Assembly: GCF_000018105.1 (NCBI RefSeq)
Contig: NC_009925.1
Location: 3,150,001-3,182,000 of the forward strand
Source: Acaryochloris marina MBIC11017
GTDB lineage: Bacteria; Cyanobacteriota; Cyanobacteriia; Thermosynechococcales; Thermosynechococcaceae
DNA length: 32,000 nt
Reading direction: 5' to 3'
The first letter of the stretch is position 1, and every line of letters starts with the position of its first letter. Under the pieces are notes generated by a model. That model had not been told where the DNA came from, did no database searches, and saw nothing but the letters and a program-made list of their open reading frames with translations. Of this stretch, positions 14,024 through 31,656 are shown piece after piece. The position numbers were made by a program, and so were the translations under genes.

Positions 14024-14105
14024 GCAAGAATTTTCTGGAGTTTGATGCTCTCAGTGTAGTCAACAAACCGGAACATCAGCTGGTAACTGACATACAAGTT
14101 GGATT

Positions 14106-14726: not shown

Positions 14727-14765
14727 GATGTGAATGATGGGGGTGGTTTACCTCTTGGTGAGTCC

Positions 14766-15236: not shown

Positions 15237-15318
15237 GGGTGGTCCTAGTGAAGGAGGCTATGATTATTGTGGTGGGTTTCCTCGCCATGTAGAGATTTTG
15301 TGGTGAGGATTTTAAGGT

Positions 15319-15609
15319 ATGAAATGGGTTAGAGCCATTGGCGGTATTGCCGTAGCTGTGGGGCTGGTTGTGGGTTGGAAGTTTTATAACCGGTTCAGTA
15401 TGGCGGCAAACGTCAGACAGATATTTCTAGCAGCCTGTGCTGAAGAGAGTCAATGCACAGGTGCAGTTGACCAGCATTTTCAGTCTTGTTTTGATGCTAA
15501 CTATCATTGGGGGGGGCGTCGCCAAGCGGGTCATTTAAATGGGAATAAATTTACAGATTGTCTAAGGGAGAAGGCTGGCGCGCCTGTCCTCCCAGATCCA
15601 TCAAAATAG
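15319..15609 (+). CDS. Small hypothetical membrane-anchored, Cys-containing protein
   Basis: One N-terminal TM (AIGGIAVAVGLVVGW) followed by a soluble part with 4 Cys. No family recognised. Confidence 0.4.
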   Translation: MKWVRAIGGIAVAVGLVVGWKFYNRFSMAANVRQIFLAACAEESQCTGAVDQHFQSCFDANYHWGGRRQAGHLNGNKFTDCLREKAGAPVLPDPSK

Positions 15610-15693
15610 ACGGCTTGTCCTACCCTGTTTTCTTGTGGCTGTCTACAATGCTTATGGGCGGTCTTAAAGGACGGGCTCATCCCTTTTCAAGTT

Positions 15694-16221
15694 TTGAGGA
15701 ACATCCTAAAAAATATGCTGCATCGATTGACTGCCTTAGCTTGGGCAAGCTTGGTCTCTATTGTCCTTCTCATGAGCCCTTCGGCTTCTGCTGCGACCTT
15801 AGGGGCATTGCCTGGAGCTGCGAGCTTATTTGCTGGCAACGCTCCTGAGTTGGGTGTGCAGGAAGGACAGCTCTCCCCCTGTCCTGATTCGCCGAATTGT
15901 GTGGCCAGCCAAAACGCAGATGCAGATCATGCGATCGCACCCCTGTCTTACAGCAGTGATCGCGACACTGCCCGAGAAACGCTGTTAAAAGTATTAACCG
16001 TTGTGCCTCGAACCCGAGTGGTAGAGCAGACCAACGATTACATTCGGTTTGAATCCAGCAGTCGATTGTTGGGGTTTGTCGATGATGGTGAGTTTTATTT
16101 CCCTGCTGAAGACAACATTATTCAGATGCGTTCCGCCTCCCGAGTGGGAGAGTCCGATCTCAGCGTTAATCGCCGAAGAATGGAGCAAATTCGCCTCGCC
16201 CTCCAGGACTTAGGTGTGTAG
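15694..16221 (+). CDS. DUF1499-domain protein (secreted)
   Basis: Signal peptide plus the hallmark LSPCPDSPNCVASQ motif of DUF1499. An ATG a few codons downstream (MLHRL) is an alternative start. Confidence 0.7.
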   Translation: MRNILKNMLHRLTALAWASLVSIVLLMSPSASAATLGALPGAASLFAGNAPELGVQEGQLSPCPDSPNCVASQNADADHAIAPLSYSSDRDTARETLLKVLTVVPRTRVVEQTNDYIRFESSSRLLGFVDDGEFYFPAEDNIIQMRSASRVGESDLSVNRRRMEQIRLALQDLGV

Positions 16222-16223
16222 AC

Positions 16224-17381
16224 GTGACCAAATTACTGCGGTATTGCTTGCCGCTGTTGTGTTGTGTGCTGCTGTTGACGGGTTGTGATCTGCCCCAGGT
16301 AACGGCAGAAGCCCGCATCTTCCTCAATCTATCTGTGGATTATTTAGGCGGGTATCAACTCTATGAAACGGAGTTTGACGGGACACGCTTCGGTGGCATT
16401 TCTGCGATTACCTATGATCGAAATCGCGATCGCTTCTATGCCTTGTCTGATGACCGGGTGCAACCTCGCTTTTACACCTTGAACTTGCAATTGGATCAAA
16501 CGAAACCCAATCGTCCCCAGATTCAAACCCTGGAAATTGAAAATGTCACTTTCTTACAAAATGAAGACGCACAGCCTTATAAGACCGATCGAATTGATCC
16601 AGAAGGAATCGCCCTGACCCCTCAGGACAAGTTGTGGGTGAGCAGTGAAGGCGTCTCCCGTTTACAGAGTCCCCCTGCTCTAATCGAATTTGATCTGAAA
16701 GGTCAGTGGCAACAACAGCTCACCTTGCCCAAGCAATTTTTGCCGATTCCTGCCACTGACGAGAATCCTAACCCACCGCCCCACGGCATTGACGATAATC
16801 GCGGTTTTGAAGCGTTGACTCTGAATCCAGAAGGCGATCGCATCTTCGTAGCCATCGAAGCTCCCTTACAGCAAGATTACCCAGACGCCGAGGTGGAAGG
16901 AGAAACCCAGCATTACAACCGCTTTCTTCACTATTGGATTGGCGAACCTCAGCCCCAATTTTTAGCCAACTACCTTTATCCTCTCAAGTCGGCTGATCTA
17001 CTCAAAGGGCTAAACGGTCTGACAGAACTGTTGACCGTGGACAGTGCCGGACATTTCCTCAGCCTTGAGCGATCCTACAGTCCATTTACAGGGTTCAGTG
17101 CTGAAATCTTTCAAATGACGACTGCCCTTGCCCGAGATACCTCCAAAATTGATCCCTTACCCAGCGACCTCACCGGTATTACACCCATTCAAAAACAGCC
17201 CCTCCTGGATTTGAAGCAGCTCAAAATTCCCGGCAGCAATTTGGAAGGCATGATGTGGGGACCTCAGTTAGCCGATGGCAGCCAGTCTCTAGTTCTAGTC
17301 AGCGACAACAATTTTGAGCCGAATGAACCAACTCAGTTCTTGCTATTTCGCCTCCGCCAAGATAGTCAGCTCGTGTCTTAA
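16224..17381 (+). CDS. Phytase-like esterase family lipoprotein
   Basis: Lipobox LLLTGC. RFGGISAITYDRNRDRFYALSDD and NRGFEALT resemble the 'esterase-like activity of phytase' family. GTG start 2 nt after the DUF1499 stop. Confidence 0.7.
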   Translation: MTKLLRYCLPLLCCVLLLTGCDLPQVTAEARIFLNLSVDYLGGYQLYETEFDGTRFGGISAITYDRNRDRFYALSDDRVQPRFYTLNLQLDQTKPNRPQIQTLEIENVTFLQNEDAQPYKTDRIDPEGIALTPQDKLWVSSEGVSRLQSPPALIEFDLKGQWQQQLTLPKQFLPIPATDENPNPPPHGIDDNRGFEALTLNPEGDRIFVAIEAPLQQDYPDAEVEGETQHYNRFLHYWIGEPQPQFLANYLYPLKSADLLKGLNGLTELLTVDSAGHFLSLERSYSPFTGFSAEIFQMTTALARDTSKIDPLPSDLTGITPIQKQPLLDLKQLKIPGSNLEGMMWGPQLADGSQSLVLVSDNNFEPNEPTQFLLFRLRQDSQLVS

Positions 17382-17384
17382 TTC

Positions 17385-18059
17385 CTATTCGCCGATGGTC
17401 ACTTCCGCGGGCGGTAAAGTGCCAATGCGATCAAAGGGCAGAAAACGAAAGACAGCTCTTCCTACTAGATCGGCATGGGCAACTAATCCCCAACAGCGAC
17501 CATCATAGCTATTGCCTCGGTTATCGCCTAAAACAAGGTAATGCTTGTCTGGAATCGTTTGAGGCTTTTCTAAAAAGATAGGAACGGGCGGTTCAATGGG
17601 CTGGCTATCGACATCTGAAGTGACATAATTGTTACGGCAGTGGTCTTCGCTAGGTCCAACAGTGACGCCTTCAGCGGTGTAATTTTCTTTAATGGGCTGA
17701 TTGTTGACCCAAACCACCCCATTTTTGATTTCAACTTGATCACCGGGGACACCCACGACCCGTTTAATAAACGCTTCTTTAAAATTGGCTCGCTTTAAGG
17801 ATTCAGTAGGATTGAACACCACTACATCACCCCGTTCAGGATCCCGAAAGCGATAGGTGACTTTATCAATGATCAAACGATCATGAATTTGCAAAGTGGG
17901 TTCCATCGACCCGGATGGAATAAAGCGGGCTTCCGCGACAAAGGTGCGAATTCCAAATGCCAAAAGTAGACTTAACCCGACCGTCTTGGCTGCTTCCACC
18001 CACCAAGATTCTTCTGGTTGTTCCGTTGGTTTCAGATCAGGGGGTTGGGGTTGCGTCAT
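17385..18059 (-). CDS. lepB: Signal peptidase I (paralogue A)
   Basis: Catalytic Ser box IPSGSMEPTL, Lys box KRVVGVPGD, and GDNRGNSYDGRCWG. Confidence 0.9.
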   Translation of the reverse strand: MTQPQPPDLKPTEQPEESWWVEAAKTVGLSLLLAFGIRTFVAEARFIPSGSMEPTLQIHDRLIIDKVTYRFRDPERGDVVVFNPTESLKRANFKEAFIKRVVGVPGDQVEIKNGVVWVNNQPIKENYTAEGVTVGPSEDHCRNNYVTSDVDSQPIEPPVPIFLEKPQTIPDKHYLVLGDNRGNSYDGRCWGLVAHADLVGRAVFRFLPFDRIGTLPPAEVTIGE

Positions 18060-18179
18060 AAAGATAGGTACAGGCCTTGAAGGATAGGGATGGGTTACGT
18101 CTTACAAATCAGTTTTCCCAGTAAGTTGATTTATAACACAATCCTGTCTGGTCAGCGCTTGTGCTTGATCACAGCCGTC

Positions 18180-18788
18180 TTACTCTAAATTTCCAATTCG
18201 GTGAACTGGCCAATAGCGAAAGACTGCTCGACCCAATAAATCTGAACGAGATACTAATCCCCAACAGCGGCCATCGTAGCTGTTGAGACGATTATCACCC
18301 AGAACGAGATAGTGGTCTGCAGGTACCACTTGGGGTAATCCTAGAAAGGATTTAGATAGAGAGGGTGGACAGACTTGAACAGATGTTTTGGCCTTATGAG
18401 CCACATATTGTTCTCGAATCTTGACCTGATTGCGATAGACAGCGCCATCTTTAAGCTCTAATTGATCTCCCGGGATGCCAATCACACGTTTAATAATCGT
18501 GTCCATGGAGAGTGGAGCGTCCTGTCGATCGACATGCTGCCGTAAAGCCTGGGGCGGACGGAAGACGATAATATCCCCCCGTTGAGGGGAATTAAATTGG
18601 TAAGTGACTTTATCGATAATCAAGCGATCGTGAATTTGCAGCGTTGGCTCCATCGACCCTGAAGGGATGAAACGGGCCTCGGCGACAAAAGACCGAATAC
18701 CAAATGCCAACAACAAGCTGAGTCCCACCGTTTTGGTTGCTTCTCGCCATCCCACTTTTGTAGAGAAAAAAAATGACTTTTTCAGCAT
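18180..18788 (-). CDS. lepB: Signal peptidase I (paralogue B)
   Basis: [19 protein letters not shown] and [14 protein letters not shown] are all present. Confidence 0.9.
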   Translation of the reverse strand: [202 protein letters not shown]

Positions 18789-19033
18789 AGCTGGAAAGAA
18801 AGTGAATCTTGGCTGTATTGGGGTGTAGTGCTTGCCCTATCGGAATGAGAATAGATACGTCAGCACCCGTTGAGAAAAGCACCAGTGAGTTGCTGTTCAG
18901 ATTCCCACTCGGTCATCGATTCTGGGACAATAGACAGTTGAGTAAGGTCATTGGTTCCAACCTGAGTTCTGCTACTCACGGGTCGTAATCTTAGCCTTCT
19001 CTTGCTTTTGCGTCGTGAACAGAAAGAAGTCGT

Positions 19034-20719
19034 ATGTCTGACAATCGAAATAGCCAAGTCGTCACTCAAGGAGTTCAACGAGCCCCCAACCGGGCCATGC
19101 TAAGGGCTGTGGGCTTTGGAGATGATGATTTTACCAAGCCGATTGTTGGGTTAGCGAATGGTTTTAGTACGATTACCCCTTGTAATATGGGCATAGACTC
19201 TCTGGCTACACGGGCAGAGGCCAGTATCAGAACGGCTGGAGCCATGCCGCAAAAGTTTGGCACCATCACTATCAGTGACGGCATTTCCATGGGCACGGAA
19301 GGGATGAAATATTCCTTGGTGTCCCGGGAAGTGATTGCAGACTCCATCGAGACGGCCTGTATGGGCCAAAGTATGGATGGAGTACTCGCCATTGGCGGCT
19401 GTGATAAAAATATGCCGGGGGCTATGCTCGCCATGGCTCGGATGAATATTCCGGCCATCTTTGTTTACGGCGGCACGATCAAACCCGGACATCTAAATGG
19501 TGAAGACTTAACCGTGGTTAGTGCCTTTGAAGCTGTGGGTCAGCATAGTGCTGGACGGATTAGTGAAGCCGAGTTAACGGCAGTGGAGAAACATGCTTGT
19601 CCGGGTGCTGGATCCTGTGGCGGTATGTATACGGCCAACACCATGTCTTCTGCGTTTGAGGCAATGGGCATGAGCCTGATGTATTCTTCCACCATGGCAG
19701 CGGAAGATGAAGAAAAAGCCGTCAGTGCAGAACAGTCTGCCGCTGTTTTAGTGGAAGCGATCCACAAGCAAATTCTGCCCCGCGATATCTTGACCCGCAA
19801 AGCCTTTGAAAATGCCATTGCTGTGATTATGGCTGTAGGCGGATCCACCAATGCCGTTCTCCACCTGTTGGCCATTTCCCGCGCGGCTGGAGACTCCCTG
19901 ACCCTAGATGACTTCGAAACCATCCGGGCTCAAGTTCCAGTGATCTGCGATCTCAAACCATCAGGTCGCTATGTAGCCACAGATCTCCATAAAGCAGGTG
20001 GAATCCCATTGGTGATGAAAATGCTATTGGAACATGGTCTTCTCCATGGTGATGCTCTGACCATTACGGGTAAAACCATTGCTGAGCAGTTGGCTGATGT
20101 CCCATCAGAGCCTTCCCCCGATCAGGATGTAATTCGGCCTTGGGACAATCCCATGTATAAACAAGGCCACCTCGCCATCCTCCGGGGTAACTTGGCCACG
20201 GAAGGAGCGGTTGCCAAAATCACAGGCATTAAAAATCCCCAAATTACGGGTCCAGCTCGGGTATTTGAATCGGAAGAGGCTTGCTTGGAGGCGATTTTGG
20301 CAGGCAAGATTCAGCCTAATGATGTGATTGTGGTGCGGTATGAAGGCCCGAAGGGTGGGCCGGGAATGCGAGAGATGTTAGCTCCCACGTCCGCGATTAT
20401 TGGGGCAGGTTTGGGTGATTCAGTTGGATTGATTACGGATGGTCGCTTTTCTGGTGGAACTTACGGCATGGTGGTTGGGCATGTGGCCCCAGAAGCTGCG
20501 GTGGGTGGTACGATTGCCCTTGTGCAGGAAGGCGATCAGATTACAATTGATGCCCATGCTCGAAAGTTGGAGCTGCATGTGTCTGATCAGGAGTTAAAAG
20601 AGCGGAAGGAGAAGTGGGAGCAACCAAAACCTCTCTATAACAAAGGGGTTTTGGCAAAGTATGCCAAGTTAGTTTCTTCTAGTAGTGTTGGAGCTGTTAC
20701 TGATTTAGATCTATTTTGA
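19034..20719 (+). CDS. ilvD: Dihydroxy-acid dehydratase
   Basis: Full-length IlvD/Edd pattern, including [11 protein letters not shown], the [16 protein letters not shown] Fe-S ligand region and TDGRFSGGT. Confidence 0.97.
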
Positions 20720-20790
20720 TCATCGTATTCTCTATCACTTATGCCTCAGCCAACGTGAATTAAGCTTCTTGATCTTAGATGATAAAAGAT

Positions 20791-22143
20791 TTAGCTTTTT
20801 TCTTCATTAGGAGGAGCACCGGCATTCCGAACATTTAAAATCCGACCTAATAAGTCAAACCAGAATGGAGCTCCCATGGCAATTGCAATAGCAGTTACTA
20901 ACCAGCCAAGTGTGGCTTTAAATAAGCCACCTTGATGGTTGATTTGTTGTGTAATTTTGGTCCAAGTAATTTTTGGTTCATTTTGCTGTGAGTCAGAAGG
21001 CTGTTCTGATGAAGACGGCTGTTCAGTCTGGATAGTTTTCGAGTTCTGTTCCGCTTCAGATAGTGGTTTCTGCTGGTTTTCTTGAGTAGGCTCTTCTTCT
21101 TTAGTAGAAGGAGAAGCTTTGTCTATTACAGATATTTTCTGATCTTTCTTAGCTTGAGATGACGGATCTGATTTTTCTGGCGGTGTATAGTTCCAACCAA
21201 GAGGTAAAGGGCCTATGGACTCAAGGATAGGATTTATTTCAGAAACAAAGTTATCAATACAGTCTAGAGAAGGGGTGTCTTGAGTGTTTTGATTGCCCTC
21301 TGATTGTTTAGAGTCACAGCGAAACAACTCTGAATTTTCTTCAATAGCTGTAGAAAGCGAGGTTGTATATTTTGTAGGTGAATGGTTTAAGCTACGCAAG
21401 ATTTGAAAAGTATCAGCATTAGCAATAACCGCGACCATAAAACCTAAAAGGAAAGATACACCTCTAGCATTACGCTTGTATACCCCTGAAGATCTTTTCT
21501 GGACACTAACAAAGATTTTCTGAATTTGCTCACTAAAATCCGCCAACGTAGCATTGCTACTTTGGATTCTTAAGGCTTCTGTAATTCTTATTAGTGACGA
21601 TATTCCTGCAATTTTTGGTTCTAAATACTGTAGCTTGTTAGTGACAATATCAACAGTATCATCATTCTTTAGATATTGGGGAGAATCTAGTTGAGATAGT
21701 TCATCTTGCAATGTATCGATTAGTGCATTTGCAAAAGTCTCAGAAGAGTCAATATATGAAGGTCCTGTAGAAAATCTAAATTTTGTGCTACGATGATTTT
21801 CTAGAAAAATACTTAGAATAAACTGCCATAATCTTCTTACATAATTTTTGTATGTTCGTTGATTCAATGATGCTATTAATGGACTTTCATATAAAAGATT
21901 AGTAAGAGATTTCTTACTTTTTTTGCTATTTTTATTTCCATCATTCTCGTCATTTTCACTAGGCATATTGTAGGCATCAACTTTATCTTCACCAAACAAT
22001 ATAAAAAGTGATGTTTTTAATCGATTTGCTCTAAATTCAAGAATCGAAGAGATTGCTTCTTGAATCTCACTGACAATTAGAGACAAAAGCAAATAAATAA
22101 AAATCAGATAGATTACAATTTGAATTATTTGAGAAAAAGACAT
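20791..22143 (-). CDS. Hypothetical 3-TM membrane protein with a Ser/Gln/Glu/Lys-rich low-complexity linker
   Basis: TM1 is IIQIVIYLIFIYLLLSLIV, followed by SEIQEAISSILEFRANRL. TM2 is VSFLLGFMVAVIANA. The C-terminus ends in LGWLVTAIAIAMGAPFWFDLLGRILNVRNAG. These terminal motifs recur in uncharacterised bacterial membrane proteins as I remember them. Confidence 0.6.
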   Translation of the reverse strand: MSFSQIIQIVIYLIFIYLLLSLIVSEIQEAISSILEFRANRLKTSLFILFGEDKVDAYNMPSENDENDGNKNSKKSKKSLTNLLYESPLIASLNQRTYKNYVRRLWQFILSIFLENHRSTKFRFSTGPSYIDSSETFANALIDTLQDELSQLDSPQYLKNDDTVDIVTNKLQYLEPKIAGISSLIRITEALRIQSSNATLADFSEQIQKIFVSVQKRSSGVYKRNARGVSFLLGFMVAVIANADTFQILRSLNHSPTKYTTSLSTAIEENSELFRCDSKQSEGNQNTQDTPSLDCIDNFVSEINPILESIGPLPLGWNYTPPEKSDPSSQAKKDQKISVIDKASPSTKEEEPTQENQQKPLSEAEQNSKTIQTEQPSSSEQPSDSQQNEPKITWTKITQQINHQGGLFKATLGWLVTAIAIAMGAPFWFDLLGRILNVRNAGAPPNEEKS

Positions 22144-22297
22144 AAATAGTATAAACGATAGAATTTTATATGATTTATTAATAGCAATTATCTATCATAA
22201 TGATCTGCATTGAAATGTAAAATACTACAAAGATATCGCTATTCCTAAACAAAACTTTCATAAAATTAGATATATAGATTTTTCTAAAAATAAGTTT

Positions 22298-22323
22298 AAA
22301 AAGCAACATATATGTTGCTTTTT
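22298..22323. terminator. Rho-independent terminator downstream of the outer-membrane protein gene
   Basis: aaaaagcaacata/tatgttgcttttt is a perfect 26-bp palindrome with A and T runs on either side. It lies 24 nt after the stop at 22347. Confidence 0.6.
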
Positions 22324-22346
22324 AACTATCAGAAGATGCTTTTTAT

Positions 22347-23627
22347 CTAGAAAGTTAAGCCTAATCCAATTGACAATTCGTTAACGTTTTGGCCAGTAAG
22401 ATCTATATCTCCTACTCTATAATTAACTAATAAATTTGCATTACCAGTATCATCAAGCCGATAAGAAAGGGTGGAAGAAAATAGATGGCTTGTTTCACCA
22501 TCTCCGGCAATATTCTGCAAAAAACTATACTCAGCTTGCAATCCTAACCGACCGAAAAATTCTGCTTCACGGTTTGCTGGGAAAAACTCGATTTCAAGTT
22601 TTGGCCCTGCTCTAAAAAGCAAGTCACCATCTACTCTATCTGTAATATTGCCAGCATCTAATACAGTTGCCAATTGAGTTTCTAAAATTGCACGCCATCT
22701 GAAACGGAGGGCATCACCGAAAATCTCTTGGGCTTGACCTAATCCAATATGCCTATTTTTTGGCTCCCATTGAAGCTGAGCTCCAAATATAGAGCTATCA
22801 AAATTAGAATCAGTTTGATATAAAAAGTTACCTCGGAAATATTGACTTGGGAAAACACTGCTACCTTGGACTTCAAAATCTGTATTGAGTGCAAAAGTTA
22901 AGATATCTTCATCGTCAAAAGCATCAGCACTGTTTTCAACTCTATCTATTTCAATGCCTGGAGTTATTTGGTATCGAGTTAAAGTCAATTTATCTGGCTC
23001 TAAATCTTCTTCATTAATTTCGGTTAGTATTGGATAAAAAAGTCCACCACGCACAGTAAAAATTGTGTTGTCAGCTTCAAAATCTCTTGTAAAGTTTAGA
23101 ATGGCGGAATCAGCTTCTTGTATTGGGGCTAAAGAGTCAAGAATAGTTACATCTTCGATATCTCTTCGTAACCTTATACCAGAACCAGCAATTCCATCTT
23201 TCTCAATACTGGGTGGAGGACCAACTATTTTACTAATGTAATCATTTGCCACCTCTAGCGTTAATTGACCATCATTTTTTTGCCTTAAGCTATTTAATTC
23301 ATCATTCGCAATTTTTAATCTATTAATTTTGACATCATTATTATTTGGATCTGAAATTTCAATGTCATCATTATTAAATGCATTCTTTATCTCTTCAAGA
23401 GTGACTATACCATCTGCTGGATCAATATCTATCTCTAAAAATGACGGATTAATTAATTTCATAACAAGCTTTTGCTGCTCATTATTTTCTTCGGAATTAT
23501 CGACTAATTGATTCCCATTTGCATCAAAATCTTCTGCCTTAATCTGTGCTTTTACTAATGTAGAAAAATTACTAAATAGTAATGTCAAAATTACAACATA
23601 TATTCTTGATTTAATATTCATATCCAT
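22347..23627 (-). CDS. Putative outer-membrane beta-barrel protein with an Asp/Asn-rich EF-hand-like N-terminal domain
   Basis: Signal peptide ends ...FSTLVKA|Q. The acidic N-domain carries DFDANGNQLVD and DIDPADGIVTLEEIKNAF. The C-terminal two-thirds have alternating-hydrophobic strands and end in GLGLTF; a terminal Phe is the OMP/BAM signature. Confidence 0.6.
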   Translation of the reverse strand: MDMNIKSRIYVVILTLLFSNFSTLVKAQIKAEDFDANGNQLVDNSEENNEQQKLVMKLINPSFLEIDIDPADGIVTLEEIKNAFNNDDIEISDPNNNDVKINRLKIANDELNSLRQKNDGQLTLEVANDYISKIVGPPPSIEKDGIAGSGIRLRRDIEDVTILDSLAPIQEADSAILNFTRDFEADNTIFTVRGGLFYPILTEINEEDLEPDKLTLTRYQITPGIEIDRVENSADAFDDEDILTFALNTDFEVQGSSVFPSQYFRGNFLYQTDSNFDSSIFGAQLQWEPKNRHIGLGQAQEIFGDALRFRWRAILETQLATVLDAGNITDRVDGDLLFRAGPKLEIEFFPANREAEFFGRLGLQAEYSFLQNIAGDGETSHLFSSTLSYRLDDTGNANLLVNYRVGDIDLTGQNVNELSIGLGLTF

Positions 23628-24019
23628 TTTTTAAATCTACTTATATAGAAATCTGAGAGCTGATTTACAAGGCACATCTTGAAGCCTCTACATCCCTAGT
23701 TTAGTAATAACTAAAGCTATGAATTTGATAGGTTTATCTCATAAATTCTTGTCTTTAGAAGATTCCAGAAACATAACGAAACAGCTCTGAGTTCGGCACA
23801 ATCTGAAACCCAATCTTTATGTATGCATATTTCAAAATTTTGCTTAACTTAAGCTTCGAATTGAAGATATAAATGGTAGTTCATACTAATTTCATATAGG
23901 ATAAACCTAGATATTTTGAAGTGAATAATTTTGCAGTGCTTTAACTACTCAATGTAAATCATTATTCAATAAATATCTCCATTTAAAATCTTCTTGAAGT
24001 CTCTATAGAAACAAAACAG

Positions 24020-24298
24020 TTATATTTTGCCCCAAATAAGTGCTGCAACTTCCGCTACTAATTCACATGCTTGATACTTAGATGGTATGATTGCAACGCC
24101 ACCTATATCAGCAAAAGGAGCGCCATCTCGGACTGAATTGAATTCGGCTGATAGGCCACTTATTGCACCTTCATCCATCCCTAAATCTTCACGCAAACGT
24201 TGCAATAGAGAGTCAGCATCAAGATGTTCTTTAACTCTGTTGTTTACTTCTGATCTACTTAAAGTATGAGATGATCTTGAGACATTATTTGACGTCAT
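24020..24298 (-). CDS. Small hypothetical protein (92 aa from the internal ATG)
   Basis: ORF 24020-24370. I prefer the ATG at 24296-24298 (MTSNNVSRS...), which is preceded by GAGGA. No family recognised, so coding status is uncertain. Confidence 0.4.
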   Translation of the reverse strand: MTSNNVSRSSHTLSRSEVNNRVKEHLDADSLLQRLREDLGMDEGAISGLSAEFNSVRDGAPFADIGGVAIIPSKYQACELVAEVAALIWGKI

Positions 24299-24400
24299 AA
24301 TTTCGCAAATCCTCGAAAAACCACTAAATCTAGCTAATAATCTAAAAATATCCAATTTAAATATTCTCACTCTTAATCAGTAGAAAAAATTATTATATTT

Positions 24401-24431
24401 TGAATATTCAAATTCACTTTTGATATTCAAA
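24401..24431. promoter_or_regulatory. Two copies of a palindromic TGAATATTCAAA-like box spaced 20 bp apart in the divergent promoter region
   Basis: tgaatattcaaa lies at 24401-24412 (tgaatattca is self-complementary) and tgatattcaaa at 24421-24431. Confidence 0.25.
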
Positions 24432-24666
24432 AAAGACTTATACAAAAGATACAAAAGTAATATCTATAAGTCAGTGCTAAAAAGTGACTACTTGTATTAA
24501 GAAAGTTTTCAATAAAGTCTTTTAATAACACATCGTTGTTTTAAAAAGTTTGATTGATATCTTCAACTTTAGATTTTGTTTGCATAATCTACTAGCCCAG
24601 GCCTGACAAGTATTACAGAAAGATGTGATCTAAATTACATCGAGCTTTGTTGGAATACTCTACTGG

Positions 24667-26181
24667 GTGCAGATAATCACGATGACTATTGAGGATGCCT
24701 TAGCTTTAATTGATACAGCCCTTGATCCTTCTTGCTTCAAGAACCTCCACCAAGATATCTTTCGCTTATCCTGGGAAGGCAAATCCTACCAAGAAATAGC
24801 TGAAACCTGCGGCTATGACACTGATTACGTCAGACATGTTGGCTATCAACTTTGGCAAAACCTCTCTCAAGCCTTGGCACAAAAAGTGACTAAAAGGAAC
24901 TTGCAAGTTGTATTCCGCCGTTTAGAACAACAAAGCCAAATCTTAAGTAATGACGTAGAAGAGATTGCCAGTCTTGTTCCCAAACCTCAACAAGCTAAAA
25001 GCAATATCAACGCTTACGTCACTAAAGTTGAACTCGTCTCAGATCAAACAACTTACCCACTCCTATGGTCTGATTCACCCAACTATCTCTATACCAAACA
25101 TAGTCAGCATTTTGTAGGTCGCCAACAGGAACAGAAAAATCTGATTCAGTGGCTAACTCGTACAGGACAAGACCAAACGCTTCCTGTTCAACTCATTAGT
25201 CTTCTAGGCATGGCAGGAATTGGCAAAACCTCCCTAGTACAACAAGTGATTCATCAGATACAAGGTCACTTTCAAAAGGTTATTTGGTGCTCCCTTCGTA
25301 ATGCTCCAACCTTTAATGAAACCTTCGCCAACATAGTCAATACTGATGAGCAAGAAGCCCTACAATGGCCTACTTATATTGATGCTCAAATTGAAATTCT
25401 GATGCGCTATTTCTGCCAGCATCGGTGCTTATTGGTTTTAGATAACTTTGAAACCATCTTGCAACCTGGTCAAATGGGAGGACATTATCGCTCTAATCAT
25501 CAAGCCTATGGCCAACTCCTCAGGCATTTGATGGATTCCCCTCATCAAAGTTGTGTTCTACTCACCAGTCGAGAACAACCTATTGGCATTAACTTACGCA
25601 ATCAACCCACCGTGCAAACCCTTTACTTACACGGACTGTCACCTTCAGAAACCCACCTCCTCTTGAACCATCAGGAGGTCAAGACAACCCAAACCGACGC
25701 TGAAAACTTAAACGCTTATTATGGGGGCAATCCCTATGCACTTAAAGTCGCAGCGACCAATGTTACATCTTTATTTCACCGCCAAGTTGCTGAATGGATA
25801 AAACAAGGCAACTTTGTATTTGGAACCATTCAGCAACTCTTAAAACAACAGCTCCAACGACTAGCGCCTCCCGAGCAGGAGATCGTTAACTTTATTGCTG
25901 CAGAAACAGGCAACGTCACCCTAGATCGACTGCATACAGCATTAGTTCTCAAAGATCTCGTTTCAACTACCGATCTTTTACCTGCATTGCAATCTCTTCA
26001 GAGTCGTTCTTTACTCTGTAACCAAGAAGATGGTCTACAACTATTGCCGTATCTCCGTGAATATTTGCGTTGTTACCAGACCTCTATTGGTGCAAAGCAT
26101 AGAGCCAGTACACCCGAAGTATTGACGAGTTTTCAGCCTGCAGCGCTTCTCTCTACTTCTCTGCCCTTAGCTCATGGCTAG
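24667..26181 (+). CDS. STAND-class P-loop NTPase (NB-ARC/NACHT-like) with an N-terminal HTH-like module and no C-terminal sensor repeats
   Basis: The N-terminal block (EDALALIDTAL....L.....FRLSWEGKSYQEIAETCGYDTDYVRHVGYQLWQNLSQALAQKVTKRNLQVVFRR) is the module found at the N-terminus of many cyanobacterial NB-ARC/WD40 proteins. Walker A is GMAGIGKTS at nt 25207-25233. Walker B is LLVLDNFE at nt 25429-25452. The likely start is the ATG at 24682. The gene ends 15 nt inside the convergent thioesterase gene. Confidence 0.8.
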   Translation: MQIITMTIEDALALIDTALDPSCFKNLHQDIFRLSWEGKSYQEIAETCGYDTDYVRHVGYQLWQNLSQALAQKVTKRNLQVVFRRLEQQSQILSNDVEEIASLVPKPQQAKSNINAYVTKVELVSDQTTYPLLWSDSPNYLYTKHSQHFVGRQQEQKNLIQWLTRTGQDQTLPVQLISLLGMAGIGKTSLVQQVIHQIQGHFQKVIWCSLRNAPTFNETFANIVNTDEQEALQWPTYIDAQIEILMRYFCQHRCLLVLDNFETILQPGQMGGHYRSNHQAYGQLLRHLMDSPHQSCVLLTSREQPIGINLRNQPTVQTLYLHGLSPSETHLLLNHQEVKTTQTDAENLNAYYGGNPYALKVAATNVTSLFHRQVAEWIKQGNFVFGTIQQLLKQQLQRLAPPEQEIVNFIAAETGNVTLDRLHTALVLKDLVSTTDLLPALQSLQSRSLLCNQEDGLQLLPYLREYLRCYQTSIGAKHRASTPEVLTSFQPAALLSTSLPLAHG

Positions 26182-26580
26182 ACTCCATCGCTGAATCCAG
26201 GTCACCAATTCTTTTGGTAGGGGCTGGCGTTGCCGATTAATGGGATTAATACATACATGCCGAATCGTCGCCTTGGCAATCAGACGTTCCCCTTTATTCA
26301 CCGCTGTAATGTTGTAGCGAACTTCAAATTCATCTTCAGCGAGTTGGTGAGTACTCAGTTGAAGGGTTAACTGATCGCCACAAAAACTGGGCTTGAGAAA
26401 ATCAATATCGGCATGGATGATTGGCGTTGCCGTATCTGGGTTGCTAAAGAATGTACGAATATCAATCCCCGCTCCCATCAGAGAATCTTCAAAGGCTTCA
26501 TGACAGATATCAAGGGCGCTGGTGAAATAGACTACCCCCGCAGCATCAGTATCTTGGAGACGAACGGTACGTGTGTACAT
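26167..26580 (-). CDS. 4HBT-fold thioesterase, cyanobacterial 1,4-dihydroxy-2-naphthoyl-CoA hydrolase type (phylloquinone pathway)
   Basis: MYTRTVRLQDTDAAGVVYFTSALDICHEAFE... resembles the Synechocystis DHNA-CoA thioesterase family. I prefer the ATG at 26578-26580. The longer ORF to 26703 would overlap the upstream gene. Confidence 0.75.
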   Translation of the reverse strand: MYTRTVRLQDTDAAGVVYFTSALDICHEAFEDSLMGAGIDIRTFFSNPDTATPIIHADIDFLKPSFCGDQLTLQLSTHQLAEDEFEVRYNITAVNKGERLIAKATIRHVCINPINRQRQPLPKELVTWIQRWSLAMS

Positions 26581-26675
26581 GGGCCACTGTATAAAACTGA
26601 ATATTAAGAGGATAGACACAGATGGTCCCCTCTTGATCAGTGCATATTTTCTGGCAAAGAAAGAGAATTTAGATA

Positions 26676-27545
26676 TTAGCCTTCTTTCAGCAAATAGGCG
26701 CACCCTGCCCCCATCATCTCAGCCCCAACATTGATAAACCGATAAATCGCGACTGCTGTTAACAACAACCCAGGAGACAGATAGGGGTGCAAGATATCAA
26801 TAGCGGATGCTTCAAAGACACCCATACCTGCTGGAGTAGGTATCACTAAGCTCAGTAGCCAAGCCATGCTAAAACCACTCATCAATGGACTAAGTGCTGA
26901 CCAATTAATCGGTGTAAAGGCCAAGACAATCAGGATAAAAATTAGCCCTCGTAGCACCATAAACAAGATGGCTCCCAGTAGAACTCGCAGCGGATAGTAT
27001 TGCATCTTGACACTACTCACTTGCTTGCCCTTGAGCTTACGAACCTGCTGCCACAAAAAATTGAGAACTCGGGGATGGAGGATCAGCAAAATCACGCCGA
27101 GCAATGCGCTTAGCCAAAGGCCGTAGGACGTATTCCACAATGCCAGTCCGATGGCGGCCGCAATGACGAAGAGTGGCTCCAGTAAAACACTTAAGGTTGC
27201 TAACTCTAGCCCTAAACCTTTTTTCTGGGCAGCTTTGACCTGACCATATAAATGCCACACACTACCTGGAATATATTTAGCGGGAGTATGTCTTAAGAAG
27301 GTGATGATGGCCCATCGTTTAGGGAGTGGATGTTTAAAGGCGGCTAAAATCCAGCACCACAATATACCTAACCAGAGTTGTGCGAAGAGTGCGATCGCAA
27401 ATGCAGCACCCCCATATAACCAGGCCTGTTGCTGTAGTTCCAGGGCTTTGACATCCTGCCAATGATTGAGCAACGTCTTGATCAGGAAAATAAGGGTTGC
27501 ACCCAATATTCCCCAGCGAACAAAAAACTTGAAGTACCGATGCAT
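26676..27545 (-). CDS. Polytopic membrane protein, UPF0104 / LPG-synthase-TM (flippase-like) family candidate
   Basis: About 8 TM segments plus the KYIPGSVW motif. The family call is from memory and is moderate. Confidence 0.5.
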   Translation of the reverse strand: MHRYFKFFVRWGILGATLIFLIKTLLNHWQDVKALELQQQAWLYGGAAFAIALFAQLWLGILWCWILAAFKHPLPKRWAIITFLRHTPAKYIPGSVWHLYGQVKAAQKKGLGLELATLSVLLEPLFVIAAAIGLALWNTSYGLWLSALLGVILLILHPRVLNFLWQQVRKLKGKQVSSVKMQYYPLRVLLGAILFMVLRGLIFILIVLAFTPINWSALSPLMSGFSMAWLLSLVIPTPAGMGVFEASAIDILHPYLSPGLLLTAVAIYRFINVGAEMMGAGCAYLLKEG

Positions 27546-27751
27546 GAACCTAATTCCTAACTGCCCCCGGCTCTGCCCTTAACGTACCCAGGTCAACCAC
27601 AGGTCCATAATGCAGATAAAAGACTTAACCCTTGGAATGTGCCTATCATGCGCGATCTGTCTCTGTTGATGTTGTATGGTGGGTCACATGAGCATTTCAA
27701 GGAAAGGGTTGCACTCCACTGAAGTTTTTGCAGCAGCCCTAATCGAACTAT

Positions 27752-28192
27752 TTGCCTGCGAACATCATGAGAGATATCGGACTAACCCATATTGCCCTCC
27801 CGGTGGCAGACATTCATCGCAGTATTGAGTTTTATGCCACCTATGCTCAGATGCAGGTTGTTCACAAACGTCTCGATGGGGCATCCGGTATCCCCGTCGT
27901 GTGGTTATCGGATGGCATCCGACCTTTTGTGATTGTGTTGATTCAAAAAGAAGTGGTGCAACCTGTGTTAACCCCATTAGCCCACTTAGGAGTTGGGTGT
28001 CCCAGCCGGGAAGCATTGGATCGCCTCTGTGATCAAGCGAAACAACAGGGAATTCTGTTAGATGGGCCTCAAGATTCTGGCTATCCCGTTGGTTATTGGG
28101 CCTTTCTACGAGATCCAGATGGTCACACCTTAGAGTTATCCTATGGCCAAGAAGTGGGCCTGACTGTTGAGCAAGCTATCCAACAAGACTAA
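27752..28192 (+). CDS. VOC-family (glyoxalase/bleomycin-resistance/dioxygenase fold) protein
   Basis: GLTHIALPVADIHRSIEFY...FLRDPDGHTLELS. The likely start is the ATG at 27767. Confidence 0.8.
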   Translation: MPANIMRDIGLTHIALPVADIHRSIEFYATYAQMQVVHKRLDGASGIPVVWLSDGIRPFVIVLIQKEVVQPVLTPLAHLGVGCPSREALDRLCDQAKQQGILLDGPQDSGYPVGYWAFLRDPDGHTLELSYGQEVGLTVEQAIQQD

Positions 28193-28326
28193 ACATCTCT
28201 CACCCCAACATTTGACGAGCACAATCCACATCAGCCTTGGGCAATTGGCCGTCGCGACCCCACCATCCCTCAGCAAGATCGGTATACTGATAAACGGTTG
28301 AACAAGCATTAGGGCACAACTTCAAT

Positions 28327-29163
28327 ATGCAGGATAGTCGCAGTAATAGTTTGATCACAGTTTTCAGTGTTGCCTTAATTGTATTAGTGGTCGTCTTCAG
28401 TAGTTTTTTTGTGATTAACCCTGGTCAGGCAGGTGTCGTCAGCATCTTAGGAAAAGCCAGAGATACCCCATTCTTAGAAGGCATTCACCTCAAGCCCCCT
28501 GTGATTTCGGCTGTAGATGTCTATGACCTCACAGTGCAAAAGTTTGAAGTCCCCGCTCAAAGTTCGACCAAAGATCTCCAAGATCTCAATGCTCGCTTCG
28601 CCATTAACTTCCGACTTGACCCGATGCAAGTCGTAGAAATTCGCCGTACCCAGGGGACCCTAGCGAACATTGTCTCCAAAATTATTGCCCCTCAAACGCA
28701 AGAATCCTTTAAAATCGCTGCTGCAAGAAGGACAGTCGAAGAAGCTATTACCCAACGGGCAGAACTCAAGCAGGATTTTGATGATGTCTTAGAGAACCGT
28801 TTAGAGAAGTACGGTATCCTTGTCCTGGATACCAGCGTGATTGACTTAGAATTTTCGCCTGAGTTTGCTAAATCTGTAGAAGATAAACAAGTTGCAGAAC
28901 AACGGTCTAAACGCGCTGTTTTTGTTGCCCAAGAAGCTGAGCAACAAGCCCAAGCAGATATTAATCGTGCTAAAGGAAAAGCGGAAGCCCAAAGATTATT
29001 AGCAGAAACCCTCAAAGCCCAAGGCGGCAACTTAGTCTTGCAAAAAGAAGCCATCTCGGCTTGGCGCGAAGGGGGATCTCAAATGCCGGAAGTTCTAGTT
29101 ACCAGCGGCTCTGAACAAGCGAATGCTCCATTTCTGTTCAATTTCAATGACTTGCCGAAATAA
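28327..29163 (+). CDS. Prohibitin / SPFH (band 7) family protein
   Basis: N-terminal TM, then INPGQAGVVSILGK..., an SPFH body, and a C-terminal Ala/Glu/Gln coiled coil (AEQQAQADINRAKGKAEAQRLLAE). Confidence 0.9.
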   Translation: MQDSRSNSLITVFSVALIVLVVVFSSFFVINPGQAGVVSILGKARDTPFLEGIHLKPPVISAVDVYDLTVQKFEVPAQSSTKDLQDLNARFAINFRLDPMQVVEIRRTQGTLANIVSKIIAPQTQESFKIAAARRTVEEAITQRAELKQDFDDVLENRLEKYGILVLDTSVIDLEFSPEFAKSVEDKQVAEQRSKRAVFVAQEAEQQAQADINRAKGKAEAQRLLAETLKAQGGNLVLQKEAISAWREGGSQMPEVLVTSGSEQANAPFLFNFNDLPK

Positions 29164-29220
29164 GTGACTTTGATCGGTCGGTAGCTACCAGTATTCGGAA
29201 ACATCAGCCCAAGCGCCATC

Positions 29221-31200
29221 CTAGAAATTCTCGTTTCGGTAAGAAAATTGATGTTGATAGCATTGGCGTCTTAAAGTGCTAGATAACCCTCTAGGACCAC
29301 AATAGTAAACGTCGACGGGCTCCGTTGGATATTGCTTCTTTAATTGGGTAAAAATCGACTTCCAATCGGGCCTACCAGCCTGAATTTGGTTCTTTAAACC
29401 TGTAATTAAATCAACCTGATGCTCTTGATGGAGTAAGTCAAAGGCAGCATATGTAGTTAAAAACTGCAGATTACTCCCTGTGGGGGCACCCGTTAAATAC
29501 AAATTGAGATCAAATAAATCAAAATTATCTTCTGCTTCTAGTCTTTGTAGCATCTCCAATAACCATTCAAATGAGTCTTGGCTGCGATTAAACCAATAGA
29601 AATGGACTTTCTGAAGCTGCAGGAGAGTTGACTCAGCTTGACGCTGATGCAAAATACTTTGTAGTAATGAGGCATAGGGGGTTACGCCAATGCCTCCAGC
29701 AATTAAAACGGCATATGTGGATTGATAGATATGGCTACTGGGGCTGTGATAAGGACCATCTAAATACACTGGAATTTTAGGCAAAGCAGTCTGACCATTC
29801 CGTTTTTCTGTGAAGTCTCGAAATTGACTATAGAGAGTACCTGTCCAGCTCCCTAGTGCTCGTATATGTAAAGACAAAGTGTCCTCTCGTTCAGGGGGAC
29901 TGCTAATCGTAAAAGGATGCCATTCATAAGTGGCAATATGGGGGCATCGTAAATAAAGATAGTCAGACGCTTTGAATGTGAAGTCGTGGGGACGAGCAAT
30001 TTCTAATGCTAGGACATTGCTGGGTAAAACTTGGGCATTGACGATATGGGTTTGTTTTGTACTACGACGATATCGAACAACTTGCTCAATTAGAAAAGCG
30101 CCAATGGATACAGCCGCCCACTTATAAAAATGAGGACCATGTAAAAGCATGAGTCCGATCCAAGGGATATACGCTAAATGCATGGTGAAAAAGAGATTAA
30201 AATTCCCCTTCTCTCGAATAAAAGGTAGAGCAGTAAACCACATTAACAACAGCAAGAGCATCAGTAATAAGCCGGTCCATCCTGAGCCGTAAAGTAAGAA
30301 AAGACGCACAGGATAATCAATTTGAAAAGCTGCTGTTTCTGCAAGATGATTATTCAGATGAGCCACGGTATGGACAAGGCCTAACGAAAAAATCATTTGG
30401 CCAACCAGTTTATGGAATGCTAGATGCTCATCAATGGGTAAATAGTCATTCAGCTTGGTTTTTCTCAGCCATGTCATCCAACGCCGCAGGATGGGGACTA
30501 AAATCAATGCGCCATTAAAATTAAGGGCTAACCCACAGCCTCGAGCGATTCGATACCAAACAGTATGGAGCCTATACTGCGGTAAACGATAGGCGTAACA
30601 AAATAAAGCAATATTGATTCCAAAATACAGCGCTAGAAATAGAAGCTTAATCCAATTGTTTTGGACATAATGCCATCGCTGTAGCCAATATTCTGGCTGG
30701 CTCTGTTGATCTGAGCTGTCAGACCTTGGCTGCAACCATTGCGCTGGACTGACAGATAAAATGTCTTTCAATCGAGGAGATTGACTTAGTAGATCCTTAA
30801 ATTCTGATAAGGATATTTCTTTATTTTGATTAGTATCTGCTTTCTTAAATAGGATGTCTCTGACTTGCTGAAATTGTGCGGTTGAGAGATCAAAGTTTCC
30901 CTCTCTCAAGCTACTTCGAATAAATTTTGCGAGTTCTTGCTTATCAATACAGCCATCATCATTGCCATCATGGAGTTGAAAAGCAAATTCGAGTGGATTC
31001 TCTTGCGCTTGATGAATGCCGTTGTGAAACTCTTCAAAACTAATCCCTTTAGTTTGATCAGCATCAAAAATATGAAATAGACGTTCGCACAAATATTTGT
31101 TCGTCAACTCAAAAGCGATTTGGAATTCTTCAATCGTGAGCCTTAGATCATCGCCAGCATAGTCTTGAAACTTTTGTTCTAAGATTTCTAGATTATTCAT
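29221..31200 (-). CDS. EF-hand-containing NADPH oxidase (NOX5-like): ferric-reductase TM domain plus FAD/NADPH dehydrogenase domain
   Basis: EF-hand loops are DGNDDGCIDKQE (canonical), DTNQNKEISLSE and DADQTKGISFEE. Two bis-His heme pairs have NOX spacing: H-x13-H in FHKLVGQMIFSLGLVH and H-x12-H in HLAYIPWIGLMLLH. FAD motif HPFTISS, NADPH motif GGIGVTP, then ITGLK...GRPDW, CGP, and a C-terminal NENF as in animal NOX. Confidence 0.9.
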   Translation of the reverse strand: MNNLEILEQKFQDYAGDDLRLTIEEFQIAFELTNKYLCERLFHIFDADQTKGISFEEFHNGIHQAQENPLEFAFQLHDGNDDGCIDKQELAKFIRSSLREGNFDLSTAQFQQVRDILFKKADTNQNKEISLSEFKDLLSQSPRLKDILSVSPAQWLQPRSDSSDQQSQPEYWLQRWHYVQNNWIKLLFLALYFGINIALFCYAYRLPQYRLHTVWYRIARGCGLALNFNGALILVPILRRWMTWLRKTKLNDYLPIDEHLAFHKLVGQMIFSLGLVHTVAHLNNHLAETAAFQIDYPVRLFLLYGSGWTGLLLMLLLLLMWFTALPFIREKGNFNLFFTMHLAYIPWIGLMLLHGPHFYKWAAVSIGAFLIEQVVRYRRSTKQTHIVNAQVLPSNVLALEIARPHDFTFKASDYLYLRCPHIATYEWHPFTISSPPEREDTLSLHIRALGSWTGTLYSQFRDFTEKRNGQTALPKIPVYLDGPYHSPSSHIYQSTYAVLIAGGIGVTPYASLLQSILHQRQAESTLLQLQKVHFYWFNRSQDSFEWLLEMLQRLEAEDNFDLFDLNLYLTGAPTGSNLQFLTTYAAFDLLHQEHQVDLITGLKNQIQAGRPDWKSIFTQLKKQYPTEPVDVYYCGPRGLSSTLRRQCYQHQFSYRNENF

Positions 31201-31656
31201 GGGTGGGCTAAAGGATAAAGAAATTGTTCGAAGCCTCTAGTCTTTATATTAAAGCTAACCTTTTAAGGCTGACTTTTAAAAAATTAATGAGAGATATTTT
31301 TGATATTCTAAAGGTGGAAATAAAATCAGATTTAAGTGCAATTTAATTTGTGTCTTGCAAACATATTGATAAATGTTTATGCATAATACTTGACTGCGAT
31401 TTTGGATTTTTAGATAAAACCAAAAATTGGATAACTTGAAACTATATAATTTCCCATTAGGTTGGAAAGTGTAAAGCGTATAAAAATGATGATAGTCTAT
31501 AGTTATTGAAAGATGGTACTAGCAATATATACGTTTTTTCTACTAATTATTAATGATAAGAATATTTATATTATCTAAGCTGAAAATAATATGTTTATAT
31601 TCTTCTTGAGATGATATATGACCAATCGTTTGGTCATTGCTAACTACCATAGTTCA

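Follow-up and report, generated by a model that had tools for sequence, protein, structure and literature searches.

The stretch of DNA analyzed here (the window; 32,000 nucleotides [nt] from Acaryochloris marina MBIC11017, in whose numbering all coordinates are given) contains, immediately after the core gene ilvD (19034-20719, plus strand; ILVD_EDD_N, 1.5e-126), three AT-rich genes on the minus strand and, divergent from them, a gene for a STAND nucleoside triphosphatase (NTPase) at 24682-26181 on the plus strand. The three minus-strand genes, referred to below as the cargo, encode a 450-amino-acid (aa) protein with three transmembrane (TM) helices (20791-22143), a 426-aa predicted outer-membrane protein (22347-23627), and the product of a 92-aa open reading frame (ORF) (24020-24298). 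In a preliminary description of the locus, all four genes had been regarded as a single candidate acquired island of 5.4 kb reaching to 26181. The results given below indicate that the AT-rich block is likely to be the strain-specific filling of a small slot, swapped by recombination, that is bounded by ilvD and by the STAND gene, the latter being conserved and a fixed neighbor outside the acquired block.

The abrupt decrease in G+C content reported to occur right after ilvD was confirmed. In 500-nt bins, G+C values were 0.26 to 0.39 over 21501-24500, compared with 0.45 to 0.52 on both sides, and the tetranucleotide distance to the window mean peaked at 21001-24866, in agreement with the drop. 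Positions 20714 to 24579 showed 32.9% G+C, versus 45.3% for the remainder of the window. The percentages initially given (28% for coding DNA, 17% for intergenic DNA, and 57% for ilvD) had the right direction but overstated the size of the effect, the corresponding values being 34 to 40%, 21 to 35%, and 51%. The G+C contents of the 450-aa, 426-aa, and 92-aa genes were 0.35, 0.34, and 0.40, respectively, and their G+C contents at third codon positions (GC3) were 0.25, 0.21, and 0.23. The flanking genes ranged from 0.42 to 0.52 in GC3, with G+C and GC3 values of 0.51 and 0.49 for ilvD and 0.46 and 0.44 for the thioesterase gene that follows the STAND gene. The latter had a G+C content of 0.43 and a GC3 of 0.38, and its orthologues in relatives had the same composition. 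The three minus-strand genes are foreign in composition, and the STAND gene is not.

The block had also been described as free of the HIP1 motif (GCGATCGC), which is true but uninformative, as the gap without HIP1 measures 10.5 kb and also spans both lepB genes, ilvD, the STAND gene, and the thioesterase gene. Sixteen copies of the motif were found in the window, 15 of them within 402-16841 and one at 27391. The distribution is strongly one-sided (15 copies within the initial 16.8 kb, against a single copy in the remaining 15.2 kb), despite the mostly core DNA of normal G+C content in the latter part.

To delimit the variable DNA, relatives were reached through STAND homologues, homologues of the 450-aa protein, and exact-protein look-ups. 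Loci L087, L089, and L091 belong to strains MBIC10699, S15, and Moss Beach, respectively, and L092, L093, L179, and L181 belong to other Acaryochloris genomes or contigs. When positions 16001 to 29500 were compared by blastn with the complete genomes of MBIC10699, S15, and Moss Beach, two collinear blocks were obtained, one from 16001 to 20705-20713 and the other from 24580-24603 to 29500, and nothing was matched between them. Similarly, homology to five other Acaryochloris genomes ended in the last ilvD codons and returned ∼100 nt upstream of the first STAND codon. The true island is thus a 3.87-kb segment with three genes (20714-24579), because blastn homology breaks at the end of ilvD and resumes about 100 nt before the STAND ATG, and the STAND gene lies outside it. 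The left junction falls inside the last ilvD codons, and the encoded C terminus reads VTDLDLF in the MBIC11017 cassette type versus VTD in three other strains. The right junction is located at TTGCATAAT, where the conserved STAND upstream region begins (24580-24681, plus strand; six-strain alignment), ahead of the conserved ATG at 24682. Thus, of the ilvD-to-thioesterase interval whose alignment had been proposed as a check, the 3.87-kb part proved variable, whereas the STAND part was conserved.

Every Acaryochloris genome examined keeps the slot between ilvD and the STAND gene, and the AT-rich genes that occupy it differ from lineage to lineage. The gene order ilvD, slot, STAND, thioesterase was observed in eight strains or contigs, down to a STAND protein identity of 67%, and the junctions coincided across strains whatever the cargo. 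Slot length ranged from 2.3 to 5.7 kb and slot G+C content from 0.33 to 0.41 in the six loci with both ends known. In all eight versions the cargo lies on the strand opposite the STAND gene, insertion sequence (IS) transposases excepted. While MBIC11017 carries the 450-, 426-, and 92-aa genes, L092 encodes a 438-aa orthologue of the 450-aa protein (84% aa identity) plus a 251-aa secreted protein, and L093 encodes a 439-aa orthologue (80%) plus a DDE transposase fragment. The slot of MBIC10699 contains an IS256-type transposase gene followed by ORFs of 67, 280, 47, and 106 aa; that of S15 encodes proteins of 131 and 244 aa; and that of Moss Beach contains an IS remnant and genes for a trypsin-like protein of 308 aa and a protein of 223 aa. 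In L181 a CpXC protein of 563 aa is followed by proteins of 223, 56, and 72 aa, and in L179 a DUF1350 protein of 340 aa is accompanied by one of 206 aa. The window cargo showed no similarity to MBIC10699, S15, or Moss Beach by blastn or tblastx, and only the 450-aa gene was shared with other Acaryochloris, namely, with L092 and L093. Outer-membrane barrel, 3-TM, or secreted Cys-containing proteins were encoded in five of the eight slot versions.

The 280-, 244-, and 251-aa proteins and the 223-aa protein of L181 constitute a family (slot-B; genes at 7306-8148 in L087, 8442-9176 in L089, 344-1099 in L092, and 8041-8712 in L181) whose members have a signal peptide, contain Cys, and are 27 to 45% identical. 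Such low identity beside similar flanks would be expected if the family evolved very rapidly or if balancing selection had preserved old alleles. The slot-B proteins have Pro/Ser/Thr-rich tails, and the flanks of these four strains are 83 to 94% identical in nucleotides. A homologous ORF of 47 or 54 aa accompanies the slot-B gene in two strains.

The closest relative of MBIC11017 is MBIC10699, with a genome-wide average nucleotide identity of 98.0 (PMC9324425). In 200-nt bins, the two strains were 100% identical over 15601-18400 and 26201-32000, and within 15601-32000 they differed only in 18401-26200, a recombination tract in which a mosaic of 79 to 98% identity surrounds the nonhomologous slot. 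The phytase-like, lepB1, thioesterase, 289-aa, and Band_7 genes were identical in both strains. For lepB2, ilvD, and the STAND gene, the synonymous divergences (dS) were 0.15, 0.22, and 0.23, respectively, and the ratios of nonsynonymous to synonymous divergence (dN/dS) were 0.22, 0.06, and 0.16, the changes being mostly synonymous. Peaks of mostly synonymous change at boundary genes are known from replacement flexible genomic islands, where they have been ascribed to homologous recombination between clonal frames (PMC4033161). The mode of acquisition, previously considered unclear, can therefore be named as allelic replacement via the flanking core genes, because there is a synonymous peak in the boundary genes amid identical DNA and because no tRNA, integrase, transposase, or repeat was found. 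Since the tract spans both the cargo and the STAND gene, the two are linked, and STAND alleles are transferred together with the cargo.

The search of the MBIC11017 window and cargo for tRNA genes, integrases, transposases, and flanking direct repeats yielded none, in concordance with the preliminary description, no Rfam element was found, and neither inverted terminal repeats nor a target duplication was found at the island. The sole match of the island DNA to plasmids extended over 130 nt at 72% identity, and no related plasmid DNA was found. The window contains two tandem signal peptidase I (Peptidase_S26) paralogues on the minus strand (17385-18059 and 18180-18788) that share patches of 72 to 81% nucleotide identity. 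The tract begins inside the second of them, and in L179, a distant relative, a dCache-GGDEF-EAL gene is inserted between the two.

The 450-aa protein was confirmed as a 3-TM membrane protein with a Ser/Gln/Glu linker. Its hydrophobic helices lie at residues ∼5 to 25, 229 to 249, and 408 to 430, and the disordered linker lies at ∼300 to 405; the AlphaFold2 model had a predicted local distance difference test score (pLDDT) of 60, with the linker below 50. At least 860 homologues, mainly cyanobacterial and without a Pfam model, were retrieved in a word-filtered protein search. The strikingly conserved motifs of this 3-TM family are SEIQE in TM1, GPSYI, SSGVYKRNA(K/R)G before TM2, LPLGW, and MGAPFWFDLL..NVRNAG in TM3. 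No usable match was found for the 450-aa protein among folds (Foldseek on the AlphaFold2 model) or Protein Data Bank profiles, and the family had no relatives in the viral collection. The MGAPFWFDLL..NVRN segment occurs with ∼50% identity over ∼40 residues in hypothetical proteins of Agrobacterium, Paracoccus, Hymenobacter, and Vitreoscilla plasmids, and judging from these alignments the C-terminal TM motif may be a module used beyond cyanobacteria. The 131-aa two-TM protein of S15 was considered as a miniature member of the family and was rejected (hhalign probability, 4.8%), only its C-terminal TM motif being similar.

The 426-aa protein has a signal peptide, a putative, degenerate EF-hand pair at ∼33 to 80, a helical linker, and a barrel of ∼12 strands at ∼146 to 426, in line with the proposal that it was an outer-membrane beta-barrel with an N domain resembling a Ca-binding one. 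In this pair, the sequence of loop 1 (DANGNQLVDNSE) is compatible with the ligand positions, and one extra residue is inserted in loop 2. A word-indexed search gave a single homologue, and an exhaustive profile search gave at least 696 clusters at 50% identity. Among 61 members of the barrel family, EF-hand_1 was detected in 30 and OMP_b-brl in 7, and Porin_4 was detected in some. The AlphaFold2 model built from the family alignment (pLDDT, 86; predicted TM-score, 0.72) showed N-terminal helices and barrel strands from 146 to 424. The protein ends in GLGLTF, with an aromatic Phe at the terminus, and Foldseek matched its barrel to BrkA, invasin, NalP, KdgM, OmpG, and OMPLA. The structural model, the domains found in the family, and these matches support the prediction of an outer-membrane barrel.

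Directly 5′ of the barrel gene, the 92-aa ORF noted previously (WP_148215744.1) is annotated in RefSeq, belongs to a singleton cluster, and has a GC3 matching that of the neighboring cargo genes; it is probably real. Neither the 426-aa nor the 92-aa gene has relatives in Acaryochloris, the nearest being found in a Xenococcaceae metagenome-assembled genome (MAG) and in a mobile element of Hyphomicrobiales. Pfam, NCBIfam, and PADLOC gave nothing significant for the three cargo proteins. For the 450-aa protein, the PADLOC match was to PD-T4-6 (8.8e-4) on residues 206 to 391, which include the low-complexity Ser/Gln/Glu linker, and for the 426- and 92-aa proteins no PADLOC match was obtained. A candidate intrinsic terminator follows the 426-aa gene (22296-22325, minus strand), consisting of a perfect palindrome of 15 plus 15 nt (100% complementary) and a T-run, and downstream of this hairpin lies a promoter-like site (22221-22194; a consensus match only). 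The terminator-like palindrome together with the promoter-like site suggests that the 92- and 426-aa genes and the 450-aa gene form separate transcription units.

The co-occurrence of the four families, a check that had been proposed, was then examined. No four-gene set was found elsewhere, and the three cargo families were found together outside MBIC11017 only once, at locus L097, which has 35% G+C and matches QNJ60_09260, QNJ60_09265, and QNJ60_09270 of the Xenococcaceae MAG. There, a 706-aa member of the 3-TM family is followed by a 96-aa ORF and then by a 415-aa barrel homologue, flanked by ParA, HNH, and tyrosine-recombinase fragments. The triad proteins showed identities of 30 to 31% (E values of 8e-48 and 9e-53), the barrel homologue reaching 31% at 9e-53. 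The similarity between the 92- and 96-aa ORFs was weak (E, 0.004; score reached by 10 of 5,000 shuffles), and each lies directly 5′ of a barrel gene. The three-gene envelope module is thus supported by one independent occurrence, and the four-gene module with the STAND gene is supported by none. No STAND homologue was found within 10 kb of the 3-TM family in 80 metagenomic loci, and no general partner of the family emerged from these loci, only clade-local synteny (serine-recombinase-like and ArnT-like genes, among others). Two nearer 3-TM relatives had other neighbors. The nearest relatives of the cargo genes were low-G+C marine cyanobacterial sequences. A second barrel homologue was found in the Hyphomicrobiales MAG JAAENI010000163.1 (L094, 8467-11680), inside an integrase-excisionase-primase element, and its neighbors showed no homology to the 450- and 92-aa proteins of the window. 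In that MAG, a gene for a 510-aa protein with a GDSGS serine protease-like motif directly precedes the barrel gene, a gene for a small two-TM protein comes after it, and a YcaO gene and a BTAD/TPR regulator gene lie downstream.

The STAND protein (499 aa; ABW28142.1) was confirmed by Pfam domains as an NTPase of the helix-turn-helix (HTH) plus NB-ARC type. NB-ARC scored above the Pfam cutoff (1.5e-13), as did NACHT and nSTAND1, and its family carries HTH_VMAP-M9; the NB-ARC domain of ZAR1 matched it at 1.3e-5. Walker A (GMAGIGKT) and Walker B (LLVLD) are intact, and no repeat sensors (WD40 or TPR) are present. A 504-aa form with a GTG start was discarded, since the gene callers begin the gene at 24682, with an ATG common to six strains. 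Acaryochloris orthologues are about 66 to 93% identical, the next matches reaching at most 41%, and the gene lies between the slot and the thioesterase gene in every Acaryochloris relative examined. It is a core gene, forming the right anchor of the slot, and is under purifying selection (dN/dS, 0.16). No STAND gene was found beside ilvD in the other cyanobacterial ilvD loci examined. About 40 nt before the STAND start, a palindrome (ATGTGAT-N4-ATTACAT, 24624-24641) has conserved arms and a variable 4-nt spacer in six strains, in one of which the STAND protein is only 67% identical; from its sequence, it is a candidate operator, possibly autoregulatory. The STAND gene converges with the 4HBT_2 thioesterase gene, and their 3′ ends share 15 nt (26167-26181), an overlap that is kept in L087, L089, L091, and L179 and is disrupted in L181, where two small ORFs (114 and 66 aa) have been inserted.

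Plasmid homologues of the STAND protein are ∼1,200 aa long, and their neighbors include giant immunoglobulin (Ig) or Ca-binding proteins, isochorismatase, and GNAT acetyltransferases, with no consistent neighbor among them. In pCC7120alpha of Nostoc PCC 7120 and pNPUN04 of Nostoc punctiforme, HTH-NB-ARC homologues of ∼1,190 aa are encoded ∼210 nt from, and divergently to, giant secreted proteins whose annotations are Ig-domain protein in one case and calcium-binding protein in the other, an arrangement common to both plasmids. PADLOC gave only weak matches for the window STAND (DolB, 4.8e-5; PDC-S27, 6.6e-4), covering the NTPase region alone, and no paper on VMAP-M9 was found in the literature.

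Several explanations of the locus were weighed against these data. The preliminary description had suggested that the four genes form one acquired conflict or defense module in which the STAND protein would detect an invader and, in response, activate effectors in the membrane or envelope. The STAND gene does adjoin membrane-protein genes, from which it is divergently transcribed, the recombination tract covers it together with the cargo, so that alleles cotransfer, and its family has Pfam HTH_VMAP-M9 and nSTAND1 domains, the “novel STAND” families having been defined in conflict-system surveys. Nevertheless, it is core and syntenic genus-wide while its neighbors change, its composition is near native, and it was absent from all 80 of the 3-TM loci. 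Its PADLOC matches are weak, its long plasmid homologues have unrelated neighbors, and the 3-TM family has no viral relatives. Synteny and the missing co-occurrence already go most of the way to refuting the four-gene defense module, which we consider scarcely credible. Of the claim that four genes had been acquired, what stands is that the three minus-strand genes are strain specific, foreign, and nonhousekeeping, whereas the STAND gene is core, syntenic, and selectively constrained. A different role for the STAND protein, as a fixed sensor-regulator of swappable upstream cassettes transcribed divergently from it, is unlikely. The co-orientation of the non-IS cargo in eight strains, the palindrome with conserved arms and variable spacer, the N-terminal HTH with an intact NTPase under purifying selection, and the two Nostoc plasmids in which long homologues are divergent from giant Ca-binding or Ig-domain proteins would be in accordance with it. 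However, each cassette brings its own 280 to 400 nt of nonhomologous upstream DNA with no evident shared operator before the cargo, only about six of the co-oriented cassette types are independent, the genes next to four other plasmid homologues are unrelated, and the palindrome could equally serve autoregulation. The extended form of this proposal, in which the HTH-STAND would govern a hypervariable slot and alleles and cassettes would be swapped together (a “guarded slot” for envelope or conflict genes), is likewise improbable; if true, it would be an architecture that is not known to have been described for prokaryotic STANDs.

The other two explanations concern the origin of the AT-rich DNA. 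A native, fast-evolving block, AT-rich from weak selection or local mutation bias and with cargo diverging in place, would agree with a slot that is AT-rich in every strain, with the persistence of the slot-B family in four strains at only 27 to 45% identity, and with the presence of the 450-aa gene in three strains at a divergence only slightly above that of ilvD. Against this, the cargo is mostly nonhomologous between strains, not merely diverged, and the 426- and 92-aa genes have no Acaryochloris relatives. The unrelated cargo of MBIC11017 and MBIC10699 between identical flanks refutes pure in-place divergence, and a native block is very unlikely. Insertion by a mobile element (a transposon, IS-mediated, or site specific) whose machinery has since been lost is supported by the IS256-type transposase in the MBIC10699 slot and its remnant in Moss Beach, the DDE transposase fragment adjoining the 450-aa orthologue in L093, the ParA, HNH, and tyrosine-recombinase fragments beside the L097 triad, and the integrase/primase element that holds the Hyphomicrobiales barrel homologue. 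Yet neither a transposase, integrase, or tRNA gene nor any inverted terminal repeat or target duplication was found in MBIC11017, the junctions are identical in all strains regardless of cargo, and the flanks bear a recombination signature. Such an element may have brought the cargo into the Acaryochloris gene pool, but it leaves the strain-to-strain swap unexplained, and as an account of the block there is very little to be said for its being right.

The reading that we prefer, then, is that of a recombination-swapped slot filled differently in each strain. Cargo is exchanged by homologous recombination, with crossovers in lepB2 or ilvD on the left and in the STAND gene on the right and with no integrase or transposon, a step that we regard as demonstrated, and STAND alleles hitchhike with the exchanged cargo. 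The MBIC11017 cargo would probably be expressed as two transcription units, one for the 92-aa ORF and the EF-hand/12-strand barrel protein and a separate one for the 3-TM inner-membrane protein, and would alter the cell envelope. Following the positive-inside rule, the disordered linker of the 3-TM protein would lie in the periplasm, and this protein could pair with the barrel, whose EF-hand domain should face the same compartment, to form a channel or tether that responds to Ca. Phages or grazers target exposed envelope proteins, and this pressure would keep the slot variable; the STAND gene would be an unrelated fixed neighbor.

Several observations weigh against parts of this scheme. The slot is far smaller than the classic replacement islands of >10 kb. 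The 450-aa gene is common to three strains at 86 to 89% nucleotide identity and need not be a recent import. Cargo function is not uniform, the remaining slot versions encoding trypsin-like, CpXC, DUF1350, and cytosolic-looking proteins of unknown function, the last including the 223- and 206-aa proteins that fill the slot in other strains. Genes for IS256-type or DDE transposases are present in the slot of three strains, so transposition may also contribute. As to the envelope complex, its function is something that we purely infer: a barrel gene adjoins the 3-TM gene in 1 of the 80 loci, the 3-TM family being normally solitary, the EF-hand loops are degenerate, the 426-aa protein of the window has no Pfam match of its own, and the expression tables of two transcriptome papers contained no match to the accessions of these genes.

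Other features of the window were also recorded. Low G+C content was found in two further stretches, one at 3001-5000 (0.36 to 0.40), inside a gene for a 786-aa Peptidase_M50 plus TPR protein (2152-4512, minus strand), and the other at 31001-32000 (0.31 to 0.36), in which every ORF is shorter than 80 aa and which MBIC10699 shares at 100% identity. A gene at 29221-31200 (minus strand) encodes a 659-aa protein with EF-hand, ferric-reductase TM, FAD, and NAD domains, the architecture of a NOX5-like NADPH oxidase; it is kept in all Acaryochloris relatives, although in Moss Beach two separate ORFs make up the gene.

The locus provides a clean example of recent island replacement, in which the only difference between two A. 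marina strains is a 7.8-kb recombination tract set in identical DNA, and it indicates that the replacement mechanism operates on very small slots too, in a cyanobacterium. With the boundaries corrected and the STAND-effector reading removed, it falls into an established category, that of the replacement-type flexible islands, as a small example; it opens no long-standing question. Nothing relevant was found in the literature on Acaryochloris islands. Two sizeable protein families without a Pfam model or functional annotation, the 3-TM family and the EF-hand plus outer-membrane barrel family, are brought to attention, with one syntenic hint that they can act together.

Compared with known systems, the locus resembles the STAND/NLR (nucleotide-binding leucine-rich repeat)-like antiphage systems (Avs and related) in having a STAND NTPase beside variable genes in a flexible region, but the window STAND has no fused or conserved effector, sensor repeats, or significant PADLOC match, and it is a core gene that does not co-occur with the cargo families. 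The STAND protein can also be compared with the cyanobacterial STANDs with HTH_VMAP-M9 and NB-ARC (nSTAND1-like), with which it shares the same HTH plus NB-ARC core at 29 to 41% identity over 64 to 97% of the query. Unlike the ∼1,200-aa NB-ARC-WD40 proteins of Nostoc and Synechocystis plasmids, it is short (499 aa) and has no WD40 or TPR sensor, and unlike these plasmid genes it is a chromosomal core gene fixed beside a DHNA-CoA-type thioesterase gene in Acaryochloris. For its part, the 426-aa protein resembles the 12-strand outer-membrane barrels (autotransporter, intimin/invasin, NalP, KdgM, and OMPLA; OmpG has 14 strands), with Foldseek E values of 6e-5 to 1e-3 at a probability of ∼1.0 and a C-terminal Phe, whereas identities are only 8 to 13%, TM-scores are low, at 0.25 to 0.32 (query normalized) or 0.4 to 0.57 (target normalized), and a putative N-terminal EF-hand pair takes the place of a passenger domain.

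The slot as a whole can be compared with the replacement flexible genomic islands (Lopez-Perez, Martin-Cuadrado and Rodriguez-Valera 2014, PMC4033161). It differs from them in its size (2.3 to 5.7 kb and two to four genes versus typically >10 kb), in the lack of glycosyltransferase or O-chain type genes, in the heterogeneous function of its cargo, and in the presence of IS elements in some versions; the figure of >10 kb is a size convention for genomic islands and not a mechanistic criterion (PMC4033161). In common with these islands, it occupies the same position between the same flanking core genes in all strains, holds unrelated gene sets in each lineage, lacks any integrase hallmark in MBIC11017, carries much cargo that is predicted to be envelope exposed or secreted, and shows a sharp synonymous peak in the boundary genes within otherwise identical DNA.

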